Positions 41,960 to 46,667 are shown, counted from the first letter of the stretch. The stretch is DNA of 64,000 bases from Bacteroidales bacterium (GCA_016928075.1 JAFGLJ010000001.1:35146-99145), one strand, 5' to 3'. The notes: generated from the letters alone by a model not told the origin. Numbers and translations are program-made.

Positions 41960-44575
41960 TCACTCCTTAATCCTGCAAACCTCGTATCCAATTTTTTCGA
42001 GCATCATTGGTATGTTATCCACGGGATCATAGTCATACGGTTTTATGGCTTCATCAAGTTTATCCCAGGGCACGAGGTTTGGGTTAAGCTTTTTTTCCAG
42101 GTCTCTCTCCGCGCCATACCTCCAGCCTTCGAGCAGGCGCTCTGCATTCCAGCGCGCATGTTCAAGCCTTGCCATCATGTCGCGGTCTTCTGACGGTAAT
42201 TGATCCGGATCCTTCATGTCGAAGAGAACAGGCTTGTCAACCTTCCTGATGCCAAGGTTCACCCTGTCCAGGATATGTTCATAGAAAGCAACCTGCCGCC
42301 TGTTTGACTGCTGCAGTGCCGGATCCAGTTTTGACCATCTCATTATTACCTTGTACTTGTTAATATCTGTCTCTGTCGTATTAAAGTCTTCGAGCCTCTT
42401 TTCCCTGTAAAACTCATGTACAAGGGGTGCAATAATTTCTATTTCTTCGCTGGTAAAGGAAGATGGTTTTTTCTGGTTCACTATCGCCCATAATGTAAAG
42501 GGATCTTCGGGCATCTGGATCAGGTTTGGATGGTCTTTCCATTGTTTTTCCCTTACAAATTCAAAGACAGCCCTTCCTGAATATGAAATAAGGCATACCT
42601 TAGCCCCCAGGGAGAGTGCAATCCTGTATTCAAGGTCGGCAATCTGACCTCCGTTAATACCGGCTACAAGCACTTCTGATGGATGTATCCCCGACAGAAT
42701 GATGTCAGTCCAGCTTGTCAGTATATCCAATGCGGAGAATTCTTCTGATGATGTTCTGTATGCATTATCGTAATAAGGCGATATGCTGGCATCATCCGGA
42801 AGCTCAGCGGGCAGGTAGGCCAGAAGCTCAAAGCCTGTCGGCCCTGCCTTCTCCATTTCCTGCTTTATCCTTCCTGTGAGTCCCGGAATACCTTCCCTGG
42901 TGCCACCGCTTATAATGGTCCCCCTGAAATCATGCATCAATTCATTAATGTATTCACCGTATGACTCAACCTCCTTTTTATCCATGAGGGATGCACCTCC
43001 TGCAACAATGACAAGCGGCTCTTTAATAGCTTCACTCCGTAAACGTGCCTGCTTAAGAACTTTATTATAGTCACTTCTGTCTTTAACAATATCCGAAACA
43101 GACATCGCCATGTTCAGGTAGAGGGTGATCTGTCCGGCAAGTTTTTCGTCGAAGCGGGCAAGCTGTTTAACACGTGCAATTTCTTCATCTACAACAAAAC
43201 ACCGGGTTGTGTATTTCTTATTCAGAATTATCGAAACTGCATTTGAATAAGCCCTGATACATTTAATTCTGTCCTCCAGGAAAAAATGACACCGTCCGAC
43301 AGCAAACCAGGCCGGCACTGCATCCACGCCAAGGCCGATCAGGTGTTCTATATCATGAACATTTTTTTCGAGGAAATTTCTGAAGAGAGTTATCGTGTGA
43401 TGCGCCAGGTCAGGGTCTTGCATAACAATGCACCCCGTTAGCGCCGTGAGGTAAAAAGGATTGTCGGGCATTAGCTCCAGGGCCTTTTTTATTGCATCAA
43501 GAGCCTCGCCTGTTTTTTGTGGGTCTTTCTGGAGAAGGCTGCCATAACGGTAAAAAAGGAAGCTCAATTCCCGGCCGGCATGAACCTTATTCTTTGCAGA
43601 CATGGCATGAAGTGATTCAAGATTCTTTTTTGCTTCACCTGACAGTTTTTTATATTCAGCATTTCCGGTATTGTCAAAACATGATGCCAGCTCAAGCATC
43701 GCCAGTTCGAATTTCAGTCGCGCCTGCCCCGCCGTATTATCCTTCATTATTTCAATCCACTCCGATATGAGGGACCGGCACTCCTCATGCATATTAAGGG
43801 CCTTGTACACTGATATAAGATTTAAAACGTTTTTGAGACCCTCATCCGGTTCATCTTTCATTATGTCTGCCAGTGTCTTGAGTTTCTCAATATCTATCTT
43901 CGCTTTTTCAGACTCATATTGAATTTCATATACATTACTAACCGAGTCAACAGCCCTGGCCATTGACCCGAAAGTATTATCAGCATTCTCAAGTATAGCC
44001 GACAGGCGTGCTGCCTCCCTCCTCCACTCTTCAGGAATCTTTAATTCAGTCTTATATAAACGGTCATGCGAAATGTCGGCCCAGATATGTTCGGCTAGTG
44101 TCCTGACCTGTATCTCTCCCTTCAGCTTTCTTATCTCTTCAGGTACCTCCACCCCAAGAATCGATTCCCTGTCGGGAGTAACTATGTAGTGTACTGACCT
44201 GTAGCCAAACTCGTTCACCTGTAGTTTTGATTTATGGTCCAGGCTGTTGGCTTCATCAATCTCAAAACTACTCTTGATTAGTTCGCATACCGCCGGTATC
44301 TGGCTCTGAAACTGTACTATCACCCTGGCGCCGCATAAATCCGTGACATCTTCCAGTGGATTCAGGTATTTATCCTTCAGTATTATCTTGTTTGAAAAGC
44401 TTACAACCTTCTTCGCCCTGGCCTGTACTATTGCCAGAAAGCCAAGCTGCCCGACTGCCTTCTCAAGAATTTCTTCCAGCTTGTCAGCAAACCTGTCGTA
44501 CTTTTCTTTTTCTGCTTCATATTGTTTGATGAATTGCCTTTGTTTTTCGATGGGTATTCTCAACTTCTTCTTCAT
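41960..44575 (-). CDS. RelA/SpoT-domain nucleotide pyrophosphokinase - TPR-like - SLOG/LOG-like - tandem RyR-repeat protein
   Basis: 871 aa. RelA/SpoT motifs are RAKKVVSFSNK, DLCGARVIV, GYRSVHYIV and EIQVRTLAEHIWA (nt ~44051-44458). A helical repeat region follows. The Gly-rich Rossmann-like segment has VIVAGGAS / ISGGTREGIPG / INGGQIADLE (nt ~42560-43021). Two RyR repeats lie at nt ~41981-42454. Confidence 0.8.
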   Translation of the reverse strand: MKKKLRIPIEKQRQFIKQYEAEKEKYDRFADKLEEILEKAVGQLGFLAIVQARAKKVVSFSNKIILKDKYLNPLEDVTDLCGARVIVQFQSQIPAVCELIKSSFEIDEANSLDHKSKLQVNEFGYRSVHYIVTPDRESILGVEVPEEIRKLKGEIQVRTLAEHIWADISHDRLYKTELKIPEEWRREAARLSAILENADNTFGSMARAVDSVSNVYEIQYESEKAKIDIEKLKTLADIMKDEPDEGLKNVLNLISVYKALNMHEECRSLISEWIEIMKDNTAGQARLKFELAMLELASCFDNTGNAEYKKLSGEAKKNLESLHAMSAKNKVHAGRELSFLFYRYGSLLQKDPQKTGEALDAIKKALELMPDNPFYLTALTGCIVMQDPDLAHHTITLFRNFLEKNVHDIEHLIGLGVDAVPAWFAVGRCHFFLEDRIKCIRAYSNAVSIILNKKYTTRCFVVDEEIARVKQLARFDEKLAGQITLYLNMAMSVSDIVKDRSDYNKVLKQARLRSEAIKEPLVIVAGGASLMDKKEVESYGEYINELMHDFRGTIISGGTREGIPGLTGRIKQEMEKAGPTGFELLAYLPAELPDDASISPYYDNAYRTSSEEFSALDILTSWTDIILSGIHPSEVLVAGINGGQIADLEYRIALSLGAKVCLISYSGRAVFEFVREKQWKDHPNLIQMPEDPFTLWAIVNQKKPSSFTSEEIEIIAPLVHEFYREKRLEDFNTTETDINKYKVIMRWSKLDPALQQSNRRQVAFYEHILDRVNLGIRKVDKPVLFDMKDPDQLPSEDRDMMARLEHARWNAERLLEGWRYGAERDLEKKLNPNLVPWDKLDEAIKPYDYDPVDNIPMMLEKIGYEVCRIKE

Positions 44576-46667: not shown

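Follow-up and report, generated by a model that had tools for sequence, protein, structure and literature searches.

Organization of the locus

We analysed a 64,000-nucleotide stretch of DNA from a Bacteroidales bacterium (GCA_016928075.1, JAFGLJ010000001.1:35146-99145), here called the window and numbered from its first letter, in which two neighbouring open reading frames (ORFs), genes A and B, encode proteins that both end in domains of the ryanodine receptor (RyR) family. Gene A joins these domains to an alarmone synthetase-like domain of the RelA/SpoT type, and gene B joins them to a channel-like membrane protein. The two genes are divergently transcribed, 175 bp apart, and comprise the following features (residue numbers refer to the respective protein):

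41960..44575, minus strand: gene A, 871 amino acids (aa); RelA/SpoT synthetase, TPR-like helical region, SLOG domain and tandem RyR pair
41963..42205, minus strand: canonical RyR repeat 2 of A, residues 791-871 (PF02026; E805, H806, R808, W809, R813, G817, W818, D825, W837, D848)
42206..42451, minus strand: divergent RyR repeat 1 of A, residues ~709-790 (H720, Y723, W747 and N758 conserved; hhalign match to repeat 2)
42566..43018, minus strand: SLOG domain of A, LSDAT_prok-like, residues 520-670 (PF18171, E 7.9e-4, 19.2 bits)
43031..43933, minus strand: helical TPR-like middle region of A, residues ~215-515 (weak TPR_2, TPR_1 and TPR_CcmH hits)
44045..44419, minus strand: RelA_SpoT nucleotide pyrophosphokinase domain of A, residues 53-177 (PF04607, E 1.2e-18, 67.9 bits, threshold 27)
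44576..44750, no strand: AT-rich 175-bp region between the divergent genes A and B
44751..46667, plus strand: gene B, 638 aa; two-transmembrane (2-TM) pore-loop domain, RCK1, RCK2-like domain and tandem RyR pair
44787..45065, plus strand: TM1 (13-33), pore helix (39-51), filter-like loop and TM2 (66-105) of B (AlphaFold2, AF2; phmmer)
44880..44918, plus strand: filter-position motif of B, Y44-x3-Q-L-F-T-M-E-S-G-D56, aligned opposite T-T-L-G-F-G-D of GsuK
45078..45392, plus strand: RCK1/TrkA_N Rossmann domain of B, residues ~110-214 (PF02254, E 5.1e-17, 62.7 bits; AF2)
45630..46136, plus strand: second Rossmann-like (RCK2-like) domain of B, residues ~294-462 (AF2 strand/helix pattern)
46179..46448, plus strand: divergent RyR repeat 1 of B, residues ~477-566 (H486, W489, W521, N532, R533 and S534 invariant; hhalign)
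46449..46664, plus strand: canonical RyR repeat 2 of B, residues 567-638 (PF02026; E581, H582, R583, R584, W585, W594, R600, H607, D624)

Both proteins end in a tandem RyR pair

An earlier note, made from the sequence alone, had read the same tandem RyR-repeat pair at the C-terminus of both proteins. The peptides on which it relied are indeed present, at residues ~715-852 of A and ~482-628 of B, and the Pfam RyR model that it proposed as a check (PF02026, gathering threshold 27.4 bits) gives significant matches above threshold to residues 798-866 of A (47.6 bits, E 2.1e-12) and 574-631 of B (51.0 bits, E 1.8e-13). The same family is recognised in 21/21 members of family A. A six-frame scan of the 64 kb with the RyR profile returned A and B only, each with one strong and one weak domain, the weak stretch in B being its repeat 1. 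Compared directly by BLASTP, the two C-termini are 29% identical over 127 aa (E 9e-16). Searches of the PDB with phmmer placed repeat 2 of A closest to the RyR Repeat12 (R12) domain (6.9e-20), followed by Bacteroides thetaiotaomicron 3nrt (8e-10) and 35tm (1.4e-3), and repeat 2 of B likewise matched R12 (1.6e-16).

Pfam picks up repeat 2 only, in A as in B, and we therefore examined the tandem nature of the module by other methods. Family profiles built from 118 A and 64 B homologues were compared with hhalign: repeat 1 of A aligned to repeat 2 of A (96.9%, E 2e-10, 68 columns) and to repeat 1 of B (91%, E 1e-6), the two second repeats aligned to each other (99.5%, E 1e-22), and repeat 1 of B aligned to repeat 2 of A (87%). 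The direct comparison of the two B repeats was weak (3.9%), and unrelated helical segments of A and B, used as controls, stayed below 1%. When the whole pairs were compared, a single 149-column alignment ran across both repeats (99.4%, E 8.9e-22). The AF2 model of A residues 700-871 (predicted local distance difference test, pLDDT, 95.4; predicted template-modelling score, pTM, 0.89) displays a helix-helix-strand pattern repeated twice, and Foldseek matched it to the entire R12 of human RyR3 (185-200 columns, E 2.5e-7, TMq 0.68-0.73), with repeat 1 of A in the place of the R1 half; the matched forms include ATP-, ADP/dantrolene- and AMP-PCP-bound crystals. The full-length AF2 model of B has the same helix pattern at residues 477-635. 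The isolated first repeats of A and B gave no match in Pfam, which we do not take as absence because the profile-profile and structure comparisons are positive. Repeat 1 is real but strongly divergent, more so in B. The tandem assignment is thus borne out for both C-termini by hhalign and the whole-pair alignment, and for A also by AF2 and Foldseek. Chance or mis-annotation as the source of the shared ends was considered and is rejected by the Pfam, hhalign, Foldseek and six-frame results.

A global search with the RyR-pair profile matched 10,944 cluster representatives, 924 of them at E<=1e-30. Of the 10 top hits, which we compared with Pfam, seven combine TrkA_N with two to four RyR repeats, and in one, of A type, the pair is present at both ends. 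Expanded versions also occur elsewhere in our set: L051:621-3611 encodes a 996-aa B-type protein with additional RyR repeats, and P0192 and P0213 comprise a TrkA_N protein of 1298 aa, in which Pfam finds RyR four times, and an A-type protein that has an RyR pair at its N- and at its C-terminus. Scanning viral contigs with the pair profile returned 3 loci only, with one repeat matched in each, and a fold search of BFVD gave weak single-domain phage matches (E 3.6e-4, TMq ~0.5). As these matches cover a single repeat, the RyR pair is not a phage gene.

Conservation of the putative RyR ligand pocket

The function of bacterial RyR domains, described in the earlier note as essentially unknown, has been overtaken by recent work in which phage RyR proteins bind or cleave cyclic ADP-ribose (cADPR) isomers and animal R12 acts as an ATP/ADP clamshell. 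In R12 of RyR3 and RyR1, ATP or ADP is bound between the repeats with its adenine stacked on Trp880 and Trp994, and the clamshell closes (PMC12627627, PMC13642953); the R12 (RY12) of RyR1 has been described as an ADP sensor (PMC13642953). The phage protein RyDEP, a single-repeat homodimer, cleaves 2'/3' cADPR, and several of its phage homologues sequester such signals: none of eight others cleaved the signal, six formed stable complexes, and the two studied closely are sponges (PMC13232231). RyR Tad, another single-repeat phage homodimer, binds 1''-3' gcADPR at 43 nM (bioRxiv 10.64898/2026.06.04.730250). Taken together, the affinities of phage RyR proteins for 2'/3' cADPR and cADPR range from nM to sub-uM, the ligand being contacted by an H-x-x-W motif, a His or Lys and an Asp, and single-repeat bacterial and phage RyR proteins form back-to-back dimers via helices alpha1 and alpha4 (PMC13232231; 10.64898/2026.06.04.730250). 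The residues that contact the ligand are H75, W78, H100 and D117 in RyDEP, H129/W132, K147/H154 and K170/D171 in RyR Tad, and W880 and W994 in RyR3.

The contact residues of all three proteins are conserved in the RyR pairs of the window. Across A, B and the AAA-type partners described below (family C), the repeat 2 His that corresponds to RyDEP H75 is found in 77/77, 12/12 and 11/11 sequences, respectively, the Trp (W78) in 75/77, 8/12 (with 3 F) and 11/11, and the Asp (D117) in 76/77, 12/12 and 11/11. Repeat 1 of all three families has the His, an aromatic residue and an invariant Asn at the position where repeat 2 has Asp. Such an asymmetric pattern of repeats 1 and 2, common to A, B and C, indicates that a single ancestral tandem module was passed on to the different proteins.

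Gene A encodes an alarmone synthetase-like protein

The synthetase domain of A has the motifs D-x-x-G-x-R, E-I-Q-x-R-T and H-D-x-x-Y-K that mark RelA/SpoT homologues of the small-alarmone-synthetase type. Residues R53, K55, D79, G82, R84, E154 and Q156, as well as R158, H163, H170, D171, Y174 and K175, are invariant across 21 diverse members, the most distant at 31% identity. Among solved structures, RelQ/RelP come closest to the domain (3l9d, 3.4e-14; YjbM, 3.5e-12), although the NCBIfam equivalogs score far under their cut-off (58.9 vs 320), so A is not an orthologue of YjbM/RelQ. The domain also matches the PADLOC candidate model PDC-S33 (E 1.5e-15). In the helical middle region, TPR families pass E 1e-3 in 3/21 family-A members.

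The SLOG-like domain noted earlier is upheld at the level of the family, where PF18171 matches 16/21 members at E<=1e-3 (best 2.8e-8), and falls short in the window protein taken singly (19.2 vs 25.4 bits). Its Gly-rich motifs (G526, G557, G558, G562, G639, G642) and E649 are invariant. A phmmer search of the PDB with this region found nothing, and the SLOG call therefore rests on the family-level Pfam result. Toxic small alarmone synthetases (toxSAS) lie next to an antitoxin gene, for instance of the small alarmone hydrolase (SAH)/HD_4 type; A has no such neighbour, as HD_4 and NUDIX are absent from the window.

Gene B encodes a pore-loop, RCK-type membrane protein

The AF2 model of B (pLDDT 88.6, pTM 0.82) runs in the order TM1, pore helix, long TM2, RCK1, helical linker, RCK2-like Rossmann domain and RyR pair. 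Foldseek matched it best to the GsuK channel (E 1.7e-8, 477-532 columns), then to the TrkA ring, Slo1/BK and MthK, and a phmmer alignment of B residues 12-188 with the pore and RCK region of GsuK (26-208, E 1.1e-5) continues through the pore helix and filter. These results confirm the pore-loop channel of the earlier note and make B a homologue of pore-loop, RCK-type channels. The RCK2-like domain aligns in Foldseek to the tandem-RCK proteins GsuK, TrkA and Slo1 and has a weak Sacchrp_dh_NADP hit at 329-376.

B has the layout of a 2-TM RCK channel, with TM1, pore helix and TM2 followed by RCK, but lacks the K+ filter T-[VIL]-G-[YF]-G-D. The family-B pattern is instead Y-x3-QLF[TS][ML]ESGD, in which Y44, Q48, L49 and F50 are invariant and E53, S54, G55 and D56 are found in 58/64, 61/64, 60/64 and 59/64 members, respectively. 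Distant B-like proteins have other non-canonical loops (LQSGS, LEGGD or ILHAPHF). Judged by its sequence, the selectivity filter of B is not that of a K+ channel.

Gene neighbourhoods of relatives

Full-length homologues of A number at least 294 and occur in metagenome-assembled genomes (MAGs) of Bacteroidales, KSB1 and Chloroflexi; a genome-contig scan with the single A protein as query returned one close relative, locus L005. For the neighbourhood analysis we assembled 83 non-redundant loci carrying A, called and clustered their ORFs, and labelled them with hidden Markov models (HMMs) from Pfam-checked seeds. Counts out of 38 refer to the loci with >=3 kb on both flanks of A.

In the window the pair sits among ordinary chromosomal genes (thiamine biosynthesis, a ZIP transporter, GH30), and NUDIX, HD_4, TIR and DUF4062 are found nowhere in its 64 kb. 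It thus represents a minimal version, with the A and B pair only, as does L005; the divergent layout is present in L005 and L093 as well. Across the 83 loci, an RyR-bearing partner was found anywhere in the locus in 31, of B type in 16 and of AAA-RyR or other types in 17; in the flanked subset this was 18/38 anywhere in the locus and 16/38 within 10 kb of A. The C-type partner (~870-900 aa) directly adjoins A; in it an AAA ATPase stands between an N-terminal domain and the RyR pair at the C-terminus. Examples are L007:2701-5346 and members in L008-L010, L012, L013, L017, L021, L023, L024, L037, L040, L042 and L079; their N-terminal domain of ~430 aa is unannotated.

A TIR_2- or DUF4062-like protein, mostly a STAND NTPase with WD40 or TPR arrays, was found within 6 kb of A in 29/38 loci, and a NUDIX or HD_4 (SAH-like) protein within 6 kb in 19/38 and within three genes in 20/38. 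In L039 and L075, A and NUDIX form one fused protein, and P0117 also carries the NUDIX Pfam domain. In the L002 operon, the stop of B overlaps the start of A and the stop of A overlaps the start of NUDIX.

B also occurs apart from A. In B-only loci, with no A within 8-10 kb, TIR genes were found in 4/4 loci examined, and no remnants of gene A were seen upstream of B. Three same-strand genes at L092:8489-11971 encode a TIR protein (327 aa), a single-repeat RyR protein (98 aa) and a B-type TrkA_N-RyR channel; the trio adjoins the mraZ/dcw cluster, has no A within 10 kb, and looks like a Thoeris-like system with an RyR-bearing effector. The remaining B-only loci comprise L091 (a TIR-like ORF, a 142-aa ORF, then B), L087 (B, then TIR-ATPase-TPR) and L086 (where B has an ADP-ribosylglycohydrolase beside it and occurs together with NUDIX, HD_4 and a fusion of TIR to PFK). 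The earlier description of a two-gene module of signal generator and channel therefore fits the window, but not the relatives, which have larger and variable TIR/STAND/NUDIX/HD_4 neighbourhoods and AAA partners. Since the RyR partner may be an AAA protein and B occurs with TIR in the absence of A, A may be a co-effector rather than the signal generator for B.

Other genes recur around A or B. TIR_2-like fusions to phosphofructokinase (PFK), ~700 aa, are found near either gene (cluster c5 in L009, L010, L015 and L053, and L086; coordinates L086:528-2666 and L010:1098-3209). Direct downstream neighbours of A include SLATT_1 2-TM effectors (L060:5934-7028, L061) and beta-CASP metallo-beta-lactamase nucleases (L056:4718-6046, L057), which may be further interchangeable effectors without RyR. 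L033:8194-8478, and likewise L035, encodes a stand-alone 94-aa single-repeat RyR protein directly downstream of A, which has the format of a phage sponge but is host-encoded. Activators of the sigma-54 type with AAA domains (cluster c3) lie beside A or B in at least 8 loci (L008:429-2102, L087:6316-7968, L093:208-1626), which suggests transcriptional control of A/B islands.

Relation to known systems

The RyR pairs resemble animal R12 in that two PF02026 repeats follow each other within a single chain, the modelled fold matches the domain over its full extent (TMq ~0.7), and both the E-H-x-x-W aromatic and the K-x-Y-D positions are retained; R12 takes up ATP/ADP in the cleft between its repeats. 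The animal domain, however, is an insertion in a 5,000-aa Ca2+ release channel, whereas the bacterial pairs are C-terminal appendages of small proteins, and bacterial repeat 1 is much more divergent (Pfam-negative) with N at the D position. Phage RyDEP and RyR Tad belong to the same Pfam family and have the ligand residues H, W, (H/K) and D in common with the pairs. They are single-repeat homodimers that serve as sponges or glycosidase, while here two fused repeats are mounted on output domains, which would imply a host-side receptor, and the match to phage models is weaker.

As in Thoeris (a ThsB TIR with a ThsA of SLOG-SIR2 or Macro-TM type), TIR genes of the relatives adjoin small-molecule sensor proteins (SLOG in A; RyR in A, B and C); growth-arresting or membrane outputs recall Thoeris and other TIR systems, and L092 has a trio of TIR, RyR and channel. 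Unlike Thoeris, the window encodes no TIR generator with the effector, and an RyR sensor with synthetase, RCK channel or AAA outputs matches no Thoeris type that we found in the literature; the only PADLOC match is the candidate model PDC-S33, on A. B follows GsuK, MthK and Slo channels in having a 2-TM pore loop followed by tandem RCK, with GsuK as its best fold match, and differs in that the filter T-x-G-x-G-D is replaced by a conserved T-M-E-S-G-D and that an RyR pair is added at the C-terminus; conduction by B is putative.

A shares a single RelA_SpoT domain with all catalytic motifs with small alarmone synthetases and toxSAS (RelQ/RelP; FaRel and CapRel with SAH antitoxins), and its relatives adjoin HD_4/SAH-like or NUDIX hydrolases as toxSAS adjoin SAH antitoxins. 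In contrast to these enzymes, A is 871 aa long with TPR, SLOG and RyR regions, and no hydrolase or antitoxin gene lies in the window. An LSDAT-type SLOG, an adjacent or fused NUDIX and a cation-channel-like partner also recall the ADP-ribose (ADPR)-gated channel TRPM2 (SLOG/MHR1-2 with NUDT9-H), but the domains are here on separate proteins and the pore is of RCK rather than TRP type, so the resemblance is compositional only.

We found no description in the literature of a RelA/SpoT-SLOG-RyR protein, a TrkA_N-RyR channel or their coupling, although a mention in Burroughs et al. 2015 (NAR) is possible; database annotations of the two architectures read 'RyR domain-containing protein' and 'NAD-binding protein'. 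The parts of A and B belong to known families, and what appears new is this sensor domain with these effectors within nucleotide-signal conflict systems of sensor-effector logic.

Proposed function and alternative explanations

Starting from the observed domain identities, tandem fold, residue conservation and gene neighbourhoods, we infer ligand binding, the identity of the ligand, the activation logic and a role in defence. As relatives of both A and B lie beside TIR immune genes, we consider it most likely that the RyR pair serves both proteins as a common sensor of a signal, in a defence-type system that appears undescribed. Each C-terminus would form a self-contained, intramolecular pair of the R12 type, a two-lobed clamshell with a cleft between its repeats for a small molecule that contains adenine. 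Three or more types of output protein would carry this sensor module. In A it would serve a RelA/SpoT alarmone synthetase or toxSAS-like enzyme, which has a SLOG domain as well; in B, a tetrameric pore that resembles GsuK, with a gating ring of RCK domains and a filter not of the K+ type; and in relatives, the C-type AAA ATPase. Because A, B and C carry the same sensor, one ligand could switch them on together. Activated A would pyrophosphorylate a nucleotide (or tRNA) and thereby arrest growth, activated B would open and dissipate ion gradients, and the NUDIX or HD_4 (SAH-like) hydrolases of relatives would provide an off-switch or safety. We put the probability of this explanation as a whole (a sensor pair on several outputs, co-switched by one adenine-containing ligand) at about 0.5.

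Our leading, though tentative, candidate for the ligand derives from NAD: a cADPR/ADPR-type signal that the TIR/DUF4062-STAND proteins next to most relatives would produce. It is favoured by the phage data, by the TIR genes in the neighbourhoods and by the loci with B only. Alternatives would be ATP/ADP or the product of A itself, which is favoured by the coupling of A and B, the HD_4 hydrolases and the TIR-less window. Since only A and B are present in the window, the trigger there would have to be supplied in trans, or else be an endogenous nucleotide. A wider scenario, which we regard as doubtful in its full extent, would make cellular RyR-pair proteins the host receptors for TIR-made cADPR-type signals and thus a new Thoeris-like class with interchangeable effectors A, B and C; the phage sponges would be captured copies, and the animal RyR R12 and TRPM2 SLOG and NUDIX modules would derive from one bacterial conflict toolkit.

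Several observations weigh against the shared sensor. TIR, DUF4062, NUDIX and HD_4 are absent not only from the window but also from its close relatives L005 and L033, so the link to defence and TIR is an extrapolation from more distant relatives. The neighbourhood loci are metagenomic contigs from related environmental lineages, whose counts are not independent events, and our own TIR HMM was only ~70-90% specific in a Pfam spot check. Most family-A sequences have S or N at position +25, the equivalent of H100 in RyDEP, and cellular members are known from sequence, predicted models and gene context. SLOG is a known cADPR/ADPR sensor domain. Its presence on A next to the RyR pair would mean two sensors for one ligand on the same protein, which is not parsimonious.

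In an alternative relay, A generates the signal: SLOG would sense an upstream cue, and the RelA/SpoT domain would make an adenine alarmone, for instance (p)ppApp, for which B and C would have receptors in their RyR pairs. The pair of A itself would serve product feedback, and NUDIX or HD_4 would degrade the alarmone. Such a relay would account for SLOG plus RyR on A as against RyR only on its partners, would work in the TIR-less window, and agrees with the binding of ATP/ADP by R12 domains. It also agrees with the adjacency of A to B or C, translationally coupled in some loci (the L002 overlaps), and with the alternation next to A of NUDIX with HD_4/SAH-type hydrolases, which are specific for 3'-pyrophosphorylated nucleotides. 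We nevertheless consider it unlikely, since B occurs without A but with TIR in every B-only locus examined, and the characterised RyR-domain ligands are cADPR isomers and ATP/ADP rather than alarmones. Moreover, the closest solved relatives of A, RelQ/RelP, make (p)ppGpp, whereas the characterised R12 ligands are adenine nucleotides. A sensor of energy state is a more conservative alternative, in which the pairs would respond to ATP/ADP as RY12 of RyR1 responds to ADP, coupling alarmone synthesis and cation flux to cellular energy in ion homeostasis without a part in phage defence. The ordinary chromosomal surroundings in the window, free of defence genes, the description of R12 as an ADP sensor, and the binding of ADP and NAD by the RCK domains of GsuK (entries 4gx1, 4gx2) are in its favour; the patchy distribution of A, its place among TIR, STAND, NUDIX and SLATT genes in most relatives, and the PADLOC candidate-defence match of its synthetase make such a housekeeping role rather improbable.

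The earlier note had offered two explanations for the shared ends, hetero-association through the RyR pairs and co-regulation by one ligand, and our results lean towards the second. For the first, the pairs would be protein-protein adaptors that dock A onto B in the manner of homotypic effector-associated domains (EADs), a suggestion that draws on the dimerisation of single-repeat bacterial and phage RyR proteins via alpha1 and alpha4 and on the presence of the same module on the products of adjacent genes. Both halves of R12 are, however, present in each chain, where the intramolecular unit predicted by AF2 (pTM 0.89 for A) occupies the dimer interface, and the invariant residues belong to the pocket, not the surface. 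Under the EAD principle (Kaur et al. 2020), the pairs of one locus should resemble each other; in most loci the RyR identity between A and its partner is mid-range among 76 cross-locus comparisons (0.27 in the window vs a mean of 0.266), which argues against a co-evolving adaptor and leaves docking with little probability. Least probable of all is an enzymatic role, in which the pairs would act as glycosidases like RyDEP, removing cADPR-type signals and so limiting the response. Repeat 2 invariably has the equivalents of the RyDEP catalytic dyad (H806 and D848 in A, H582 and D624 in B), yet none of eight other phage homologues cleaved the signal despite high conservation (PMC13232231), repeat 1 has N at the acid position, and animal R12 retains the same residues and only binds its ligand. 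We thus favour a portable, co-regulating sensor because the pair is complete in each chain, its pocket residues are conserved, and the module occurs on three unrelated output types.

RyR/R12 was shown to be a pocket for nucleotides and cADPR only in 2025-2026, in animal channels and in phage anti-defence proteins. The locus and its relatives offer a testable role for thousands of cellular bacterial RyR proteins, that of a portable sensor, usually beside TIR/STAND, through which a single ligand would control an alarmone synthetase, an ion channel and an ATPase. If true, this would add a new sensor-effector class to TIR-based bacterial immunity, link second-messenger immunity to growth control of the (p)ppGpp/(p)ppApp type, explain the phage RyR sponges, and suggest where the modules by which animal RyR and TRPM2 channels sense ligands originated in evolution. 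For experiments, the two-gene pair in the window, as the minimal version, is a convenient entry point.

Flanking sequences

In a scan of the sequence around the A/B pair, sigma-70-type promoter and terminator matches were at chance level. A predicted 149-aa membrane ORF (41469-41918, plus strand) runs towards the 3' end of A and stops ~40 bp short of it; no counterpart was found among the related loci that were clustered. Downstream of B, a glycosyl-hydrolase-like gene was called mechanically as ORF 47020-48801 (plus strand). Its true start is probably later, which would leave ~600 bp 3' of B without an obvious gene, and would lie at the lipoprotein-type signal 'MKSRSAILIMSLTIIACG'.

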